Source: a virus (Duplodnaviria; Caudoviricetes). From it: 57,718 nt of DNA. Shown piece by piece: positions 13,273 to 25,124 of this stretch. The notes under the pieces are model-generated. The model ran no database searches. It had not been told where the DNA came from and worked only from the letters and a program-made list of their open reading frames with translations. The stretch's first letter is position 1. Every line of letters starts with the position of its first letter. The position numbers were made by a program, and so were the translations under genes. The stretch lies in IMG/VR virus record IMGVR_UViG_3300025769_000008, positions 1 to 57,718 of that record. One strand, 5' to 3'.

Positions 13273-13335
13273 AAAACTGATTTCAAGGATTTTTCCTCTC
13301 ATCAGGCAAAAACACACATTTTTGCTATCAGTTTT
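13273..13335 (-). ncRNA. Hammerhead ribozyme HH1 (type III)
   Basis: AAAACUGA-UA^GCAAAAA-UGUGUG-UUUUUGC-CUGAUGA-GAGGA-AAAA-UCCUU-GAAA-UCAGUUUU: full core and three stems; predicted cut between 13326 and 13325 (AUA). Confidence 0.92.
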
Positions 13336-13428: not shown

Positions 13429-14793
13429 TTATGCGTAGAAGTCAGCAGTATCAACGTAAACCACCTCACCAAAAGGAAGGTTTTCAGAGTAACGACTCTT
13501 ATCGGTTACGCACCACACTACAGGACACTCAGGCTCTTGCTCAGGCTCTACAGTTCCATATCCATCCGTAAAGTAAACAAAGGCTTGAACGTCTTCCACA
13601 TCATCAGACCATTCATTGAACAGATGAAAGGGAGGGTCAAAGGAAGTTCCACCCCCACCACGAACCTTGAGTTCTAGGTCTTCACCTTGATTAAGTTCGT
13701 AGATATCCCACCATTCACCTTGATCATTTTTCACTACTGTAGAAGCACAGTAGCAAACTCTAACCTTGTCCAATCCGCAGTCTTCAGCCATAGCTTGTAC
13801 TTCACTCGCAAACTGATCTAGTTCGTGTTGTGAAACACTTCCGCTAGTATCAACCGCAATAGCAAGTTCTCCTCCTTCAGGATTACGAACCTTGCTAGGT
13901 AAGTTGATACCTCTCCACGCATGACGTTTATTAAGTCTAGACCAAGAATAGTCATTGCAAGTCAACGACTGTAAGAAGTCATTCAACATATCTTTCCAAG
14001 ATATAGCTGATTCTTTCTCACTTTCAATGCCACCTTTCATATTAGAAGTACCGCTTCCAAATTGCTCTAGCTTGTCAGCTAGTGAAACTGCTCTTTGAAT
14101 CTCGCCTTTGAGTTCTTGCATTTCTGCTTCGTTCATTGGCTTGCCTTCTTCGTTAGTAGCATCCCAAACTTCTCCAATTGCGGAAGGAAGATTATCAAGA
14201 TCACTCGAAATTGATTTACCCCCCCTTGGGGAATCTTCATGATATTTTCCTTTACCAGTCAATGATTGATCTTCTCCTTGATCATCAGACTCAGAATCCC
14301 CCCCACCTTCGGAATCTTGCGACTCTTCAGGCTTGTGTTCTTCGTTGTCATTGTTGATCTGATCTACCGCATCTTGCAAGGCATCCTCATCTTTAATCAG
14401 ATGTTGATACACCTTCTCAGCAGTCCAACCTTTGTACTGATAATCAAGAAGACCGCCTGTTGGCAAAGTCATTCTTAGATCATAGTGAAGGTAGTTATTG
14501 ATTACATAATCGCAAGCAATATTCCAAACTTTAGGATGTCTCTTCCCTCTCCTTAAAGGATGTTCATAGACAACGTGTAAAGCTTCGTGGACAAGTACAC
14601 CTTGCAACTCTTCTTCGGTAACACCCTCAACAAAATCAGGAAAGAAATAAATCTTCTTTCCATCAGTTGCCATAGTGTCACACTTAGAAGAATCGACCTC
14701 CACTAATTCAAGGTGTAGGAGCATACTTGCCATACCTACATTGCCTTGCATTAGCTTTGATCTAGCCTTAATGATCTTATCTAAACTAGTCAT
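13429..14793 (-). CDS. Metallopeptidase-vWA protein (DUF2201-like)
   Basis: TMATDG, HEALH zincin motif, WNIACD, MIDAS DTSGS, GGGGT and FTDG. Confidence 0.88.
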   Translation of the reverse strand: MTSLDKIIKARSKLMQGNVGMASMLLHLELVEVDSSKCDTMATDGKKIYFFPDFVEGVTEEELQGVLVHEALHVVYEHPLRRGKRHPKVWNIACDYVINNYLHYDLRMTLPTGGLLDYQYKGWTAEKVYQHLIKDEDALQDAVDQINNDNEEHKPEESQDSEGGGDSESDDQGEDQSLTGKGKYHEDSPRGGKSISSDLDNLPSAIGEVWDATNEEGKPMNEAEMQELKGEIQRAVSLADKLEQFGSGTSNMKGGIESEKESAISWKDMLNDFLQSLTCNDYSWSRLNKRHAWRGINLPSKVRNPEGGELAIAVDTSGSVSQHELDQFASEVQAMAEDCGLDKVRVCYCASTVVKNDQGEWWDIYELNQGEDLELKVRGGGGTSFDPPFHLFNEWSDDVEDVQAFVYFTDGYGTVEPEQEPECPVVWCVTDKSRYSENLPFGEVVYVDTADFYA

Positions 14794-15769
14794 TTTTCTT
14801 ACCTCCAAAGGCACGTTCTAAGAACCCACCTTTAAGTCCATCAACAGACTGCTCAAGACCTTCAGCTACTTGCTTACGTTTTGATTCACCTAGTTCTGTA
14901 TCATCCCTTAGAGACTCCACAGAGTTGATAGAAGCAAGAACGCTTACAAGTTGTTGATGAGCATCAGAGATAGATTGATCATTGCCTAAGATATCTGAAT
15001 TAATAGAAGGAAGAGTTTCAACCGCCTGTCTCAATTTCTCGATACTGCTATTGTTGAAGAAACCCTTCTGTTTGTTTTCAGGGTCGTAGGCTTTTAGCTT
15101 CTCAGCTAAATGATCTACTTGAGAAACAAGTGCATCAACAGTAGTAACTAAAATGTTCTTAATGTTGGTGCTTGCTCTGTTTACTGCATCACTCTCTATC
15201 CTCTTTCTAAGTTCGTCAGATACATTTAATCTGATATCAGAACCAAAAGTTGGTAGCGGAGACATTTCAAACTGAAAGATAAATTTATCTCTCAGCCTTT
15301 GCAAATCCCAATCGTCAGTAGGGTAATCGTCTTCGTCAAACGCATCACCTAATCTGTCTTTTGCATTCGCAATGTCTAGAGGTAGTTGCTTGAAAAAACC
15401 TTCTACCTCTCTATCCCAAATCACTTTCGCTTGATTGACTTCGTACTGAAGCTTTTCAAGTTGTGAGTTAGGACACAATCGCCAACCACCGCCAACCTTG
15501 ACTCCGTTATCGTCTGAAGTATCAGACCAAGGCAAAGTAAGGGGATAGTAAAAGTCATTCCTAAACGCATTGATAATACTGCGAAACTCTTTGTTCACAT
15601 TCCTACCAAAGATATGCTTAGAAACATTTAACAAATCAGCATTAGATTTCACATCCTCTGCTAAATCATTTTTTAAACTCTTATCTGTTTTGATACCGCT
15701 CGGATGCCCTAGAGCAACACGAACCAAAGTAGCATTCTCAGATAGAGTTGTACTTAGTTTTTTATCCAT
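14786..15769 (-). CDS. DUF3150-like protein
   Basis: YPLTLPW and RLGDAFDEDDYP motifs; sits between the AAA and vWA genes as in known triads. Confidence 0.65.
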   Translation of the reverse strand: MDKKLSTTLSENATLVRVALGHPSGIKTDKSLKNDLAEDVKSNADLLNVSKHIFGRNVNKEFRSIINAFRNDFYYPLTLPWSDTSDDNGVKVGGGWRLCPNSQLEKLQYEVNQAKVIWDREVEGFFKQLPLDIANAKDRLGDAFDEDDYPTDDWDLQRLRDKFIFQFEMSPLPTFGSDIRLNVSDELRKRIESDAVNRASTNIKNILVTTVDALVSQVDHLAEKLKAYDPENKQKGFFNNSSIEKLRQAVETLPSINSDILGNDQSISDAHQQLVSVLASINSVESLRDDTELGESKRKQVAEGLEQSVDGLKGGFLERAFGGKKND

Positions 15770-15798
15770 AATTGAACCTCCATTCAGTTAGATAAAGT

Positions 15799-15856
15799 TA
15801 TCTGATTTCATGCTTTTGCAATCATCAGTTGAGATAACACATCTCAATATCAGATA
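15799..15856 (-). ncRNA. Hammerhead ribozyme HH2 (type III)
   Basis: UAUCUGA-UA^UUGAGAU-GUGUU-AUCUCAA-CUGAUGA-UUGC-AAAA-GCAU-GAAA-UCAGAUA; predicted cut between 15848 and 15847 (AUA). Confidence 0.9.
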
Positions 15857-15924
15857 GGCTTGAGGGGAGAAAAAGAACATTTACCAGTAAATAATAAATA
15901 TTTCTCTCTCTCCCGTCAGGCGGG

Positions 15925-16974
15925 TCAGACTTCTAAGTCAGAATTTTCTACCTTAAATTCTCCATAGGTAGAAGTATCTTTTAACTCAGGTCTCGCTCCA
16001 GTCACAGAACGCACAAAGAAGATTCCAAACTCAGGGGAAGGAAACTTATTTATGAAGTTGAGACTATTCTTAAAATGGCTTGTGACGTTGTTGTCATTCG
16101 CTTCTTTAATCACAGTCACTAATGCACAGATCGTAGCGTAGCAAATGCCCCCATGATCAGGAACATCTACTTCAAGACCTTCGACTATTCGGTCAAGATC
16201 AGGCACATCATTTTTAAGAGCTAAGAAAGACATAAATTCAATTGAAGCAGTCTCGCCAATATCACATTCACAAATCAATTGCTTCAGATCGTTGGAAGGA
16301 TTAGTCTTCAAAGTATCAGACAATCTTGTCCATGCTCTCGGTGAAGGCTGAGGAGTTTTGACTTTTGGGTCAAAGACATTCAACCACTCAGGCTGAAAGT
16401 TGATATAACCCAATACATCAGGATGCACATCATTATCAACCGCCCATTTCAACCAGTCATCCGTATTGTGTTCAAAGTTAATAATTGAACAACGACCAAC
16501 CACATGAGAAGGCAGAGCATTGCTACCCGCCCTGTCGGATGATCTGTTACCCGCACAGATAACTTTCCACCCTTCGGGCAAGATGTACTCGCCCAATCTT
16601 CTCTCGTAAATGATCTGTCCTACTATGGCTTGTACACTCGGATGAGCCTGTGCATATTCATCAAAGAATAAAACACCCTCACCACCAATCGGAAGATTAC
16701 CTAAGAAGGCTCGCTTCTGTTGGTTATCGTCACCAATATAAGGCAGACCACCAAGGTCAACGGATTCATAAAGAGATAGCCTAAAGTCAATCCACCCAAA
16801 CTGCTTCGCAGTTGGATTGATTTCATCTGAAACAATCTCTCTATCGTTAGCTAGTTCCTCCGCAAGTTGTTTAACAACCGCAGATTTACCAACACCAGTT
16901 CCTCCTAAGAGGAAGGGGGCATTGCCCCCATTTAATACAGACTTCATTATCTGTAATGCTTTACTAGGATACAT
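15925..16974 (-). CDS. MoxR-type AAA+ ATPase
   Basis: Walker A GGTGVGKS, Walker B LFFDEY, AGNR sensor, SPRAW; GGAGG RBS. Confidence 0.9.
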   Translation of the reverse strand: MYPSKALQIMKSVLNGGNAPFLLGGTGVGKSAVVKQLAEELANDREIVSDEINPTAKQFGWIDFRLSLYESVDLGGLPYIGDDNQQKRAFLGNLPIGGEGVLFFDEYAQAHPSVQAIVGQIIYERRLGEYILPEGWKVICAGNRSSDRAGSNALPSHVVGRCSIINFEHNTDDWLKWAVDNDVHPDVLGYINFQPEWLNVFDPKVKTPQPSPRAWTRLSDTLKTNPSNDLKQLICECDIGETASIEFMSFLALKNDVPDLDRIVEGLEVDVPDHGGICYATICALVTVIKEANDNNVTSHFKNSLNFINKFPSPEFGIFFVRSVTGARPELKDTSTYGEFKVENSDLEV

Positions 16975-17025
16975 AAGAACCTCCATTCTATTTATCTAGT
17001 TAATGTTGCTAGCACCACGCTAGCA

Positions 17026-17086
17026 CCTATACGAACCCAACCAAAGTTAAGTTCGTTTCATAGCATTTCAGCTAATCATCAGTAGG
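17026..17086 (-). ncRNA. Hammerhead ribozyme HH3 (type I)
   Basis: CCUA-CUGAUGA-UUAGC-UGAAAU-GCUAU-GAAA-CGAACUUAAC-UUUG-GUUGGGUUCG-UA^UAGG; predicted cut between 17030 and 17029 (GUA). Confidence 0.85.
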
Positions 17087-17264
17087 CTTTCTCAGGTATG
17101 AAAGGAACGACTTCCAACTCATACCCAAGGCTCTCGATTACCGCAACGTGGTAATCATTAAAAGTCTTTGATCTTGTCAGCTTTGCTAACTTCTCAGCAG
17201 TATCGCAAACAGGATAAAGAAGGTAATTCCCAAACACATTTTTCCAAACGACTTTAATCTTCAT
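17079..17264 (-). CDS. Small hypothetical protein
   Basis: GGAGG RBS; VVWKNVFGNYLLYPVCDTAEKLAKL pattern. Confidence 0.7.
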   Translation of the reverse strand: MKIKVVWKNVFGNYLLYPVCDTAEKLAKLTRSKTFNDYHVAVIESLGYELEVVPFIPEKAY

Positions 17265-17606
17265 TTAGACCTCCACCTTAGTGAAATACCATTGATCAGA
17301 ATCAATAGGCATTTGAGTATTATCTATATGGTCAACAAGGTAAGTCTGTCCTTTGATTTTACTTAAAGACATTTTGCCCTCAAACACATCTAGAACCGCA
17401 TTGATTCTCGCTCTAGTTGTTGGAGTATCCCAACCGCATAAAGTGAATTGAACCAATGTTGAATCCTTGAGGTTTCCTTCAGGCATGATTCTCACAATCT
17501 GATTACCATGCAACCAAACACCTTCACTTGTAACAACAGTATTACCGCCTTTAAAATCCTTAGATTCATAAAGAGCAACCGCACAATTTTTATCTATATT
17601 TCTCAT
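17265..17606 (-). CDS. Hypothetical early phage protein
   Basis: GNTVV...LHGNQI...GWDTPTTRARINA motif; GGAGG RBS. Confidence 0.75.
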   Translation of the reverse strand: MRNIDKNCAVALYESKDFKGGNTVVTSEGVWLHGNQIVRIMPEGNLKDSTLVQFTLCGWDTPTTRARINAVLDVFEGKMSLSKIKGQTYLVDHIDNTQMPIDSDQWYFTKVEV

Positions 17607-17637
17607 AGTTTTCTAACCTCCATAGTTAGTTATTAGT

Positions 17638-17692
17638 TATCTGTTTCATCCTTTTGGAATCGTCAGCCAAGGTACACACCTTGATACAGATA
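17638..17692 (-). ncRNA. Hammerhead ribozyme HH4 (type III)
   Basis: UAUCUG-UA^UCAAGGU-GUGU-ACCUUGG-CUGACGA-UUCC-AAAA-GGAU-GAAA-CAGAUA; predicted cut between 17685 and 17684 (GUA). Confidence 0.9.
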
Positions 17693-17722
17693 GGGGATAC
17701 TTATTAGGCATCCCCCACTTTT

Positions 17723-18103
17723 TTATTGATCTAATCTCTTTCCTCTGAAGTGATTCTCATCTTCTTCAATCAGAGCATGAATGTCTGCATTAGCCATATC
17801 CATGACATTCTGAAAACCTACGCTTCCTACTCTGTAGATGTCTCCGTTAAAGATCATCCTATCACCTACAGAAGTAGACCTATATTCAGCACCTCTAACA
17901 AAGGTAGATACACTAGAATTCTTAGTCCAAGACTCTTCTATGTTTTGAGTCTGTGCATAAGCAAATTCTAAAGCTTCAGTACCTTCACGCTCTCCCACAT
18001 TTACAAGACCAACGACTTCAGGTTTATCGAAAGTTTTACGACCTCCAAAGTCTTCAGTCATTAAAAATGCAGTATGGATAACAGTTATAAGATTTATTTT
18101 CAT
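17723..18103 (-). CDS. YodL-like domain protein
   Basis: RSTSVGD...YRVGSVGF resembles the YodL RSLSVSD...YYVD..GF motif; GGAGG RBS. Confidence 0.55.
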   Translation of the reverse strand: MKINLITVIHTAFLMTEDFGGRKTFDKPEVVGLVNVGEREGTEALEFAYAQTQNIEESWTKNSSVSTFVRGAEYRSTSVGDRMIFNGDIYRVGSVGFQNVMDMANADIHALIEEDENHFRGKRLDQ

Positions 18104-18138
18104 TGTTTTAATCCTCCACGAATTAAGTTAGTTAATTT

Positions 18139-18188
18139 ACTGTTTCTGCTTTCGCTTCATTCAGGCTAGATACACATCTAGCGACAGT
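18139..18188 (-). ncRNA. Hammerhead ribozyme HH5 (type III, variant core)
   Basis: ACUG-UC^GCUAGAU-GUGU-AUCUAGC-CUGAAUGA-AGC-GAAA-GCA-GAAA-CAGU; one extra nucleotide in the core and a minimal stem II; predicted cut between 18183 and 18182 (GUC). Confidence 0.72.
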
Positions 18189-18189
18189 T

Positions 18190-18475
18190 GGAGGACTGTC
18201 CTCAAAGTTTCGGAATATGTCTCTTTAATGTTTCGTTCCAATTAGGTATCTCTCGATAGCTAAACGACATACTCGTTCCCTTTGAGTTGTATGAGTCTTG
18301 CTTCTTCGGTTATCTTGCACCTAACCTTTACACTCTCTCACACTAGCCACTTTCTTAGGCGGATTCAGTTGCGACCTTCACTATATTTGAACCTAATCGC
18401 ATCCTACTTCTAGAACCTTCAATCTCTCGTGAGACTGGCAGACCTTTTAAGGAGGGTGACTCGTTTGCTCCGTAG
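18190..18475 (-). ncRNA. Putative ~290-nt structured leader/non-coding RNA
   Basis: No ORF in the track; multiple nested stems, with G-U wobbles favouring the minus strand; lies between the promoter and HH5. Confidence 0.55.
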
Positions 18476-18480
18476 GAGCA

Positions 18481-18508
18481 ATCTTAACACAGAAGCACAT
18501 CATTGCAA
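18481..18508 (-). promoter_or_regulatory. Putative sigma70 early promoter
   Basis: TTGCAA-16nt-TAAGAT with an extended -10 TG, upstream of the leftward operon. Confidence 0.55.
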
Positions 18509-18592
18509 ATCATATTAGCTAGCAGACTGTGAGCATACCCAAATACTCCTTACTGGTAGATAATAATTAACAGGTAATAGGAGAACAGAACC

Positions 18593-19084
18593 ATGACAGA
18601 CAAGACAGAGAAACCGAACCTCAAGATCGTGAACAAAGACACAGACCTAACCATAAAGCAGAGGGCATTCGTAGACGAGATTATCAGGGGCAAGTTAGGA
18701 AGCTATAAGGAAGCTTACGCAAAGGTATATGACGTTACGCTAACCAAGACAGGGAAGATACCTAAGTGGGTAGAGGTAGAAGCAAGCAAGCTTGTAGCTA
18801 ACCCTAAGATAGCACTAAGCTTACATAAGGCTATACAGAGGAAAGAGGATGTTGCAGTTGCTTCTTCCCTACGTACAAGAAACTACGTTCTTGAAAGGCT
18901 CATGTCAGAGAGTAAAGAAGCAGATAGCGATGCAACAAGGGTCAGAGCATTAGAATTGTTAGGGAAGACTGTATCGCTCTTTAACGACACCATAGAGATA
19001 AAGGAAGCAAGGGATAGCGAAACCATAGAAGAGGAGATAGAAGAGAAGATCATAGCCTTACTAAGTAAAGAGGAAGCAGAGTAA
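18593..19084 (+). CDS. terS: Terminase small subunit
   Basis: LTIKQRAFV...AY...ASKL..NPKI and RVRALELLGK motifs; upstream of terL. Confidence 0.8.
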   Translation: MTDKTEKPNLKIVNKDTDLTIKQRAFVDEIIRGKLGSYKEAYAKVYDVTLTKTGKIPKWVEVEASKLVANPKIALSLHKAIQRKEDVAVASSLRTRNYVLERLMSESKEADSDATRVRALELLGKTVSLFNDTIEIKEARDSETIEEEIEEKIIALLSKEEAE

Positions 19085-19483
19085 CCCCCCCTTTTGTTCG
19101 CAGAATCCACAGAGAGAGGACACCCCATACCCCCCTTGTGTGTGTACGGCTACCTGACTATCATATATACATAGTGATTCACACATTCATAGCTCTACTT
19201 TCATATACCCCCCCTATATATTGCATTTTGCTAGCAAGTTTTCACTAAGTACCCCCCCTTTCTTAGATAAAGACCTAGGATTCCTACACCCCCCATATTA
19301 TTTTTTCAAAAAAACAGTTGCTTTTTTTGTGAAGGGGGTGCAATATTGTAAAATCTGTAGGTATATATACCTAGTACATACCTAATACCCAGTTCCTACC
19401 TAATGAGTGCCTACCCTGTATGTACTTAATAAGTTTTTAATTTAAGAAGTATCTACTTAGTGGGTATATACTACATAGTAAGT

Positions 19484-24102: not shown

Positions 24103-25124
24103 GTGAAACAGAAATCATAAATGAAGAACCAGTAATAGAGGAAAGTGTTAAACAGTCTGAAGAAGATAAATTCTTTGGTAAACAAACACAAATTGATAAC
24201 ACTATACCTGAAGGATTAGAAGTAGAAGTTATTGACGATACTCCACAAGAGGATCGTAGACCAGCAAAAGAAGAGACTACATCTGAAGTACCTGATGTTG
24301 ATGATGAAACTTTAGATAAAGAAATATCTGATTATAGCGAAAGAGCTGGTAAAAGAATTGCTCAAATTAAATATGAGTATCATGAAGAACGTAGAGCTAA
24401 AGAAGCTGCTACAAGAGAATCACAAGAAGCTGTAAAACGCTTACAAACTTTGATGTCAGAAAACCAAAGGCTACAAGCTATGGTAGATCAAGGTGGACAA
24501 GTTTTAAATAAACAGGCACATAACAATGCTTTGTGGGCTAAACAAAATGCACAAGAAGCATTTAAAAAAGCTTACGAAGAAGGTAATGCTGAAGAAATGA
24601 CAAAAGCACAAGAGTTATTGTCAAAAGCTACATTAGCTGAACAACAATCAACTAATATGGCACAAAACCTTCAACAACAAATAGCTCAAAATTTACCACA
24701 GCCTGAAATACAAGCTGCTCAACCTGATCCAGATATGCAAGCATGGGCACAAAAAAATCCTTGGTTTATGGGTAGTGAACCTGTACACAAAGAGATGACA
24801 TCTTATGCAATGTATGTAGATCAAAGCTTACAAGCTAAAGGGATTGACCCTGCTTCTAAGTCACAAGAATATTATGATGAAGTTGATAAAGCTATGCGTA
24901 ATCAATTTCCAACCTTTTTCGGTGCATCTTTACAAGAAGAGGTAAAAGTACCTCAAGAAGAAGCACCAAAACGACAACCTTCAACAGTTGTTGCATCCGC
25001 AACGAGGGATAGCGGTAACAAAAAACCTTCGCAAATACGATTGACTCAGACACAAGTTAAGCTAGCTCGCCAACTTGGAATTAGTCCAGAGCAATACGCA
25101 AATCAATTATTAAAGGAGGCTTAA
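24099..25124 (+). CDS. Capsid scaffolding protein
   Basis: Acidic N-terminus, coiled coil, W...NPWF and C-terminal ARQLGISPEQYA; upstream of the capsid genes. Confidence 0.7.
   Translation: MSETEIINEEPVIEESVKQSEEDKFFGKQTQIDNTIPEGLEVEVIDDTPQEDRRPAKEETTSEVPDVDDETLDKEISDYSERAGKRIAQIKYEYHEERRAKEAATRESQEAVKRLQTLMSENQRLQAMVDQGGQVLNKQAHNNALWAKQNAQEAFKKAYEEGNAEEMTKAQELLSKATLAEQQSTNMAQNLQQQIAQNLPQPEIQAAQPDPDMQAWAQKNPWFMGSEPVHKEMTSYAMYVDQSLQAKGIDPASKSQEYYDEVDKAMRNQFPTFFGASLQEEVKVPQEEAPKRQPSTVVASATRDSGNKKPSQIRLTQTQVKLARQLGISPEQYANQLLKEA

Follow-up and report, generated by a model that had tools for sequence, protein, structure and literature searches.

The divergent intergenic region at 18104-18592 (489 bp) of the viral record IMGVR_UViG_3300025769_000008 carries a leader which, judged by comparison with its relatives, is a conserved, non-coding, structured RNA of ~290 nucleotides (nt) (18183-18474, minus strand), placed between a promoter and a hammerhead-like ribozyme motif, HH5. 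The stretch analysed, called the window throughout, is the complete record of 57,718 bp with direct terminal repeats; coordinates are window positions, and the leader, HH5 and the leftward operon of ~15 kb that follows them are on the minus strand. By large terminase, the nearest cultured relatives are the Pelagibacter phages HTVC027P and HTVC023P, with 52-59% identity to the window.

The leader travels with its promoter, is swapped as a unit, can be absent, has hairpins at its predicted ends and is paired with a ribozyme that would free it; this combination favours a released accessory RNA that acts in trans. Our preferred reading, to which we give an even chance, is that this “class A” leader is one of a set of interchangeable promoter-proximal RNA genes in pelagiphage relatives of HTVC023P/HTVC027P, freed from its transcript and acting on its own.

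Conservation, fold and strand of the leader

Protein-anchored searches with the small terminase and the first open reading frame (ORF) of the operon gave 97 loci; 34 viral and 42 metagenome stretches carry DNA patterns taken from the conserved core. With nhmmer, a profile of the region returned 85 distinct homologous loci, 61 of them with a full window-like leader (class A), while a covariance model of the core (R1; 129 positions, 22 pairs) matched 64 loci at E up to 0.001 on related marine viral and metagenome contigs, two divergent ones having ~50% G+C. The exact core pattern had no match in the genomes of 185,579 prokaryote species, cultured phages gave no blastn match to 17600-19100, and the core model found nothing at the terminase locus of HTVC027P, where the gene order near the terminase differs from that of the window. 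Elsewhere in the window the core model has a weak match at 24213-24335 (plus strand), inside a structural gene (21.4 bits, E 0.044), which is probably chance.

Across the 75 loci found by DNA motif alone, the small terminase gene is divergently adjacent in 70, and four of the other five lie at a contig edge. The first downstream gene, in contrast, is homologous to the first ORF of the window in only five. With the small terminase constant and the downstream gene variable, the RNA goes with the promoter locus and not with a regulated gene.

Searched against Rfam 15, the whole window gave nothing over the leader, either at the gathering score or at E up to 10, in agreement with the original prediction, which could not assign the leader to a known family. 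The remaining weak Rfam matches in the window lie elsewhere and look like chance. Readings of the leader as tRNA-like, T-loop, SRP-like or cobalamin-riboswitch-like were also dropped, being short resemblances found by eye, with an unfit order of elements and no Rfam match.

Every string on which the original prediction built its fold is found on the minus strand at the positions it gave, and its statement that the stretch holds no ORF stands for ORFs of at least 60 aa. The sole minus-strand ORF of at least 30 aa (18225-18320, 31 aa, GTG start) crosses a region rich in indels among the relatives, and no frame of the leader is conserved among them.

The promoter is read from the sequence as follows.

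18481-18508, minus strand: promoter of the leftward operon, with -35 hexamer TTGCAA (18503-18508) and -10 hexamer TAAGAT (18481-18486)
18488-18489, minus strand: TG in front of the -10 hexamer; the promoter spacer is 16 nt

Both hexamers are thus present where they had been predicted. They match 8 of 12 consensus positions, which is why a promoter scan did not list them, and the extended -10 (TGnTAnnnT) is kept in register across the relatives. The leader begins a few bases past this conserved promoter, and transcription is predicted to start near 18473-18475. No terminator-like site was found in a scan of 17600-18700, leader included.

Folded as a single sequence, the leader barely beats its shuffles (minimum free energy (MFE) -77.2 kcal/mol, z -1.82, 7 of 200 shuffles equally good), so the case for structure rests on comparison with relatives. 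Alignment A4, which covers the core in 64 rows (54 distinct) and was fitted to the model, has 94.5% of its cells paired against 82.0% when shuffled, and 129 double-change cells against 31.4 when shuffled and 9-25 with slid partners. Because A4 leans towards its own model, the count was repeated on A5, a plain MAFFT alignment of 46 distinct, diverse full-length leaders that was fitted to no structure and on which a 54-pair model was scored. Here 89.3% of cells are paired (76.3 +/- 0.5% when shuffled, 24-46% with slid partners) and 297 cells carry a double change (99.6 +/- 7.8 when shuffled, 31-63 with slid partners). Out of 500 shuffles, none reached the observed value on four of five measures and two did on the fifth. 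The claim of a structured leader, for which covariation had been proposed as the check, therefore holds on an alignment made without reference to the fold.

The fold belongs to the minus-sense strand, as G-U cells (224) outnumber A-C cells (60); the paired share is 89.3% in the minus sense and 82.2% on the complement. The long unpaired stretches of the leader are nearly invariant among the relatives. From 5' to 3', the elements upstream of the last hairpin are these.

18468-18471 with 18451-18454, minus strand: 5' hairpin H1; 100% of cells paired, double changes in three of four pairs
18458-18461 with 18440-18443, minus strand: 5' pseudoknot formed by the H1 loop; 78.8% of cells paired, double changes in all three pairs
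18420-18437, minus strand: hairpin H2, CAGUCUC-ACGA-GAGAUUG
18362-18417, minus strand: long irregular hairpin of the conserved core; outer helix 18413-18417 with 18362-18366
18397-18404 with 18367-18374, minus strand: 8-bp helix of the long hairpin; double changes in 8 of 8 pairs (A4) and 6 of 8 (A5)
18389-18391 with 18377-18379, minus strand: tip helix UUC/GAA of the long hairpin
18343-18361, minus strand: highly conserved segment with invariant columns
18337-18342 with 18290-18295, minus strand: helix UGUGAG/CUCAUA; double changes in two inner pairs (A5)
18322-18326 with 18308-18312, minus strand: variable hairpin GGUUA/UAACC; double changes in two pairs (A5)
18201-18286, minus strand: domain 2, with an interior of variable length
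18280-18286 with 18201-18207, minus strand: closing helix of domain 2, CUCAAAG/CUUUGAG; 97.2% of cells paired, double changes in six of seven pairs
18266-18274 with 18213-18221, minus strand: second helix of domain 2, GAGUAUGUC/GACAUAUUC; 77.5% of cells paired (A5), double changes in eight of nine pairs
18247-18258, minus strand: tip hairpin UAUC-GAGA-GAUA, a variable hairpin in the relatives

The window-like subfamilies accommodate the 5' pseudoknot; in the main subfamily it cannot be made out clearly. H2 has compensated variants in relatives, most of which have in its place two small hairpins in a three-way junction whose closing pairs covary by eye. Within the long hairpin, the 8-bp helix is continuous and well supported by double changes, while the outer helix is unproven because it is nearly invariant; between them lies a conserved 8-nt one-sided bulge, UAGAAGUA. 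Some bases of this hairpin might alternatively be read as an AGUA/GAA motif, which we take to be loop-E-like. For the highly conserved segment no helix register fits every sequence, and positions 18362 and 18348 covary by eye (C-G, U-A, A-A). The UGUGAG/CUCAUA helix encloses conserved GAGAG and AAGAC strands together with the variable GGUUA/UAACC hairpin, in place of which some relatives have a mini-hairpin of 2-3 bp. The 7-bp closing helix of domain 2 is among the best-supported helices of the whole leader.

A one-sided bulge UAGAAGU (18405-18412 in the window), with nothing unpaired opposite, occurs both in class A and in the otherwise unrelated class C (e.g., L084). It could be a docking or protein site in common, or chance.

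Seven helices of the original prediction are borne out by this comparison: H2, GGUUA/UAACC, CUCAAAG/CUUUGAG, GAGUAUGUC/GACAUAUUC and the UAUC-GAGA-GAUA hairpin as they were drawn, the long helix UGCGAUU/GGUCGCA in its UGCGA/UCGCA part, and UUCA/UGAA in its UUC/GAA part. Two others fall. The proposed closure of domain 1, GAGUC/GACUC, is broken without compensation in L033-type sequences, and its bases fit the 5' pseudoknot and the UGUGAG/CUCAUA helix instead; GGAU/AUCC is superseded by the continuous 8-bp helix.

Cassette exchange, HH5 and the junction between them

18201-18497, minus strand: exchangeable cassette, comprising the -10 region and the whole leader up to the loop of the 3' hairpin

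Aligned by blastn with relatives L002, L020 and L004, the window is 87-100% identical in both flanks; the alignment stops at 18492-18498 and resumes at 18199-18200, and nothing aligns over the ~297 nt between. In L002 the small terminase is 96% identical to that of the window and the first ORF 90%, and the terminase stays 96-97% identical where the leader segment is wholly replaced. There are at least five unrelated leader classes (A-E) at this one site, plus one leaderless relative. Class B comes in three size variants with visible compensatory changes, class C has a multi-branched fold with clear compensatory changes, and classes D (L064, L068) and E (L098) are known from one or two sequences each. 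Neither class B nor class C is matched by the core model at E up to 1, and classes B-E have no Rfam match at E up to 5; the only RAGATH matches in the relatives are weak ones to RAGATH-1-hammerhead (E 0.29-1.6). Every leader class is followed by a hammerhead-like motif, with a deviation at position 15.1 in the copy after class E. In L090, the leaderless relative, leader and hammerhead are both missing before the first gene, which fits a ribozyme that serves to cut the RNA off.

Two observations stand beside this exchange. A hybrid leader in L082/L083 (the same contig region) joins class A 5' elements and the second domain to an unrelated ~230-nt middle that replaces the core, so exchange also occurs at the level of domains. 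Separately, a ~25-bp box at 18513-18537, between the leader promoter and the small terminase gene, is conserved in class A-D relatives and is not conserved in the class E relative L098 or in the leaderless L090; it could be a late promoter, an operator or a packaging signal.

Downstream of the cassette, HH5 was read by hand.

18139-18188, minus strand: HH5, type III hammerhead-like motif with a GUC cleavage triplet
18184-18188 with 18139-18143, minus strand: stem III of HH5
18177-18182 with 18165-18170, minus strand: stem I of HH5

Stem II of HH5 is 2 bp long, with a GAAA loop and an A-A mismatch at its flank, and GAAA follows before the stem III strand. HH5 has the G12-A13-A14 bases, the A15.1-U16.1 pair and an NUH cleavage site, and the cut is predicted after C18183, as it was originally. 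Its core, CUGAAUGA, has eight bases against the consensus C3-U4-G5-A6-N7-G8-A9, with one extra base after A6. Among 85 relatives the core is seven bases long in 60 and eight in 21, and is cut off in four.

Of 86 sequences, 82 can be read as a type III hammerhead at the HH5 position, and their stem I occurs in 14 fully paired variants; the ribozyme shape is on this evidence conserved. Other hammerheads in related operons match Rfam Hammerhead_3 significantly, at E 5.7e-5 to 3.5e-3 and 32.1-38.4 bits, though below the gathering cut-off. Position 17 is C in 80 of the 82 parsed hammerheads and U in two, and stem III has 3-5 contiguous pairs. Stem II is invariant in the subtype of the window and covaries in a second subtype. 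That subtype (L048, L056, L089 and ~45 others) always has two extra A between stem II and the core GAAA, a stem II of 5-6 bp and a stem III of only 3-4 bp.

Leader and ribozyme meet in a last hairpin, whose features are as follows.

18183-18200, minus strand: 3'-terminal hairpin GACAGU/ACUGUC; 100% of cells paired (A5), two inner pairs covarying
18189-18194, minus strand: loop CCUCCA of this hairpin, just before the cut site
18113-18118, minus strand: Shine-Dalgarno sequence UGGAGG of the first ORF; nine bases, counting its 3' flank, are complementary to 18189-18197

The hairpin ends exactly at the cut site, and its 3' strand doubles as the 5' strand of stem III. All sequences seen of classes A, B and C have CUCC in the loop of this hairpin, while classes D and E have no CUCC hairpin. 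Calculated with RNAfold for RNA that excludes the ribosome site, the hairpin state has -16.1 kcal/mol and the hammerhead state -11.4 kcal/mol. For uncut RNA that includes the ribosome site, the MFE is -23.9 kcal/mol, and stem III is kept and extended by the anti-Shine-Dalgarno pairing. In 44 of 68 distinct modules the MFE fold contains the CUCC:GGAG pairing, a count given without a control. From the modelled energies before and after the cut, which would fit a two-state switch, we infer that the junction may work as a device.

Under the preferred reading of a released RNA, the sequence of events would run as follows. Host RNA polymerase would start at the sigma-70-type extended -10 promoter, and its first product would be a multi-domain RNA of ~290 nt, in which a 5' hairpin and its pseudoknot are followed by the conserved core (~130 nt), the variable second domain and the last hairpin. 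Before cutting, CCUCCA and the stem III strand would pair with the ribosome site of the first gene and the 3' strand of the ribozyme, holding the active fold and masking the site. The hammerhead directly downstream would then cleave after C18183, whereupon the same bases could refold into a blunt 3' hairpin and the mRNA would be freed with a 5'-OH. What is left upstream would be a stand-alone RNA with hairpin caps at both ends, acting in trans as an accessory factor, most likely through a host or phage protein that it binds early in infection; candidate roles are host takeover and defence evasion. The original prediction of a discrete non-coding RNA with a ribozyme-set 3' end is in this sense partly sustained: the element is discrete, conserved and strand-specific and has a hammerhead-shaped motif next to it in 82 of 86 sequences, but the HH5 of the window itself carries an insertion that is reported to give low activity. 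A decoy or a sponge, both of which had been suggested, would be candidate forms of the released RNA.

Readings of the leader's function

Several points weigh against a released, trans-acting RNA. The first group concerns the ribozyme: HH5 has no Rfam hammerhead match at E up to 10 (the gathering score of Hammerhead_3 being 48.5 bits), and it combines the extra base after A6 with a 2-bp stem II flanked by an A-A mismatch. Phage hammerheads with an insertion after A6 are reported to have low activity, and phage hammerheads with a 2-bp stem II, or with a U-U mismatch at its start, are described as well (PMC3088659). The competing hairpin is predicted to be more stable than the hammerhead in RNA that excludes the ribosome site, so cleavage could be slow or regulated. 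The count of 44 of 68 modules needs a control, since both pairing partners are constrained for other reasons, and the single-sequence fold is weak.

The second group concerns transcripts. RNA libraries entered the analysis as 16 runs, with small shares in all, and four of these runs were placed on the window; being assembled contigs, their sequences cannot reveal ends or levels. Contigs covering the leader come from X5 (18223-18518), X6 (18116-18266) and X7 (18212-18420), and their ends coincide with neither the predicted start nor the cut site. The X6 contig, with zero differences from the window, runs across the HH5 cut site. A contig from X3 (18112-19135) covers both divergent transcription units, for which reason the RNA libraries probably include DNA. 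No partner for the RNA emerges from the phage itself, either: antisense matches of at least 10 nt to its own transcripts number 18, where 200 shuffles averaged 14 and reached 28 at most.

The main rival is a cis-regulatory role that includes control of the ribozyme: the leader would sense a ligand, a protein or temperature and would set the rate of the hammerhead or the exposure of the ribosome site. The leader has the 5' untranslated region position for this, and its near-invariant unpaired stretches are as one finds them in ligand or protein pockets. Its anti-Shine-Dalgarno hairpin, a competitor of stem III, adjoins the helix that closes domain 2, and the slow 8-nt core variant recurs in 21 of the 85 relatives; slow phage hammerheads might be regulated, as PMC3088659 suggests. 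We nevertheless consider this reading unlikely. A regulator of the gene behind it would not be expected to precede a first gene that varies between relatives, nor to be unrelated in near-identical phages and missing from one. The leader lacks a terminator-like site and a Rfam riboswitch match. The hairpin/ribozyme module, moreover, is identical in classes A, B and C, classes D and E do without the CUCC hairpin, and the variable upstream domains share no base with the ribozyme stems.

An immunity-type antisense RNA in the style of P1 c4 or P4 CI would pair with transcripts of the phage itself or of a competitor, and the leader classes would be immunity types. Presumed processing from an operon leader is in line with this, as are the swapping of classes between close relatives, which immunity types would lead one to expect, and the complementarity of the conserved loop to the strong UGGAGG ribosome sites after each operon hammerhead. 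The complementary loop, however, sits in the hairpin common to classes A, B and C and not in the class-specific part, the matches to own transcripts are at chance level, none of them places a conserved core loop at a ribosome site, and the size and complexity of the leader far exceed those of the ~80-nt P1 and P4 RNAs. We regard this reading as improbable.

A put-like processive antiterminator, in which the nascent leader binds the polymerase for read-through of the 15-kb operon, had also been offered in the original prediction and is the least likely of the functions named there. The leader would be the first RNA from the promoter of a long operon, but the hammerhead would sever its tether to the RNA polymerase, one relative lacks a leader altogether, and near-identical phages carry different leaders. 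The five or more unrelated classes would each have to suit a single conserved host polymerase, and the scanned region around the leader has no terminator-like site to read through; we hold this reading to be very improbable. A DNA-level element beside the terminase genes (packaging site, replication origin or operator array), whose RNA structure would be incidental, is scarcely credible: the divergent position next to the small terminase in 70 of 75 loci and the conserved box between leader and small terminase gene would suit it, but the helices are kept by compensatory changes, the pairing is strand-specific, and the segment is replaced wholesale while the terminase stays nearly identical.

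A bolder form of the preferred reading of a released RNA takes the first-transcribed locus as a hypervariable RNA-effector site. The RNAs of the five or more classes, each freed by a hammerhead, would be counterparts of anti-defence or host-takeover proteins, swapped in an arms race with the host, and the common hairpin would couple their release to the translation start of the operon. We put this forward tentatively, as a possibility that is more likely wrong than right.

Surrounding genes, known systems and significance

The genes next to the leader and the other hammerhead-shaped motifs of the window are arranged as follows.

18593-19084, plus strand: small terminase gene, to the right of the leader; the large terminase and more plus-strand ORFs lie beyond
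17723-18103, minus strand: first ORF of the leftward operon, 126 aa, without assigned function; ATG at 18101-18103
~13273-13335, 15799-15856, 17026-17087 and 17638-17692, minus strand: other hammerhead-shaped motifs, between cistrons

The leftward operon also encodes a Kyano_Gp96-like gene, an AAA ATPase and a DUF2201 metallopeptidase/VWA-like gene, with a Sak-type annealing protein further left; the primase-helicase gene is on the opposite strand from the operon. Three consecutive genes at 13429-16986 (minus strand) encode an AAA_5/MoxR-like ATPase of 353 aa, a protein of 327 aa and a DUF2201 metallopeptidase of 461 aa that has a VWA-like domain. The 327-aa protein has no significant Pfam match, and the row is a chelatase-like or MoxR-VWA-like trio in the early operon.

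HH5 included, the window has five hammerhead-shaped motifs, all intergenic and on the minus strand. Of the four others, three are of type III and one is type I-like; in three of them stem II has a U-U mismatch at its base, and a strong UGGAGG ribosome site lies 3' of each. Like HH5, they go undetected by Rfam at E up to 10. The first ORF lies between two hammerheads (17638-18188), so its mRNA would carry a 5'-OH and a 2',3'-cyclic phosphate. Such ends are joined by RtcB-type ligases. A circular first-ORF mRNA is conceivable; circular products were sought in other phages and none found (PMC3088659).

Among the closest known systems are the phage and prophage hammerheads of PMC3088659 (Perreault et al. 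2011). In the sections of that paper available to us, hammerheads flanking genes in phage operons cut in vitro and in vivo, and the role proposed for them is to cut a long transcript into units. As in the window, one operon can hold several of them between its cistrons. Stems II of only 2 bp or opening on a U-U mismatch are on record, as is an insertion after A6, and one copy lies, like HH5, just before the first ORF of an early transcript. This last, the “HHphage” of haloviruses HF1/HF2, is 13 nt before the first ORF, and the mapped 5' end of the early transcript is within three nucleotides of its cut site (PMC3088659, same sections). Unlike what we find here, those sections mention neither a conserved structured RNA upstream nor exchangeable leader classes, and at the cut site they describe no anti-Shine-Dalgarno hairpin.

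The RAGATH motifs resemble the leader in being conserved RNA structures near hammerheads, often in phage-like contexts and mostly without a function so far; RAGATH-18 is a protein-binding scaffold. No RAGATH family in Rfam 15 matches the window, however, and the leader is larger and is defined by its fixed place between promoter and hammerhead. In P1 c4 and P4 CI an RNA is excised from an operon leader and then acts alone. Those RNAs are ~80 nt long, are excised by host RNase P and pair in antisense with mapped sites, whereas for the ~290-nt leader a ribozyme cut is predicted and class-specific targets were not found in the phage's own transcripts. In synthetic insulators of the RiboJ type a ribozyme removes a variable 5' leader, which gives the mRNA a fixed 5'-OH start, and a hairpin governs the exposure of the ribosome site. 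These are engineered, while in the window the leader that would be removed is conserved and has a structure of its own, so it looks more like a product than waste.

It is rare to find a large structured RNA without a known function, and new biochemistry has come from several of them. The present leader is ~290 nt long, covaries across dozens of uncultured pelagiphage-related marine phages and is absent from Rfam. Three features are unusual: the ribozyme would define the 3' end of a non-coding RNA, beyond merely separating cistrons; the leader can be exchanged as a cassette, at least four unrelated alternatives being known for the site; and a conserved anti-Shine-Dalgarno loop sits exactly at the cut site. 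Should the leader instead control the ribozyme, it would to our knowledge, which includes no dedicated literature search, be the first natural ligand- or factor-controlled hammerhead. If the leader is indeed a trans-acting effector, it would open a class of RNA-based phage-host interactions in one of the ocean's most abundant virus-host systems. Either reading would give a testable role to phage hammerheads, whose function has stayed open since their discovery.

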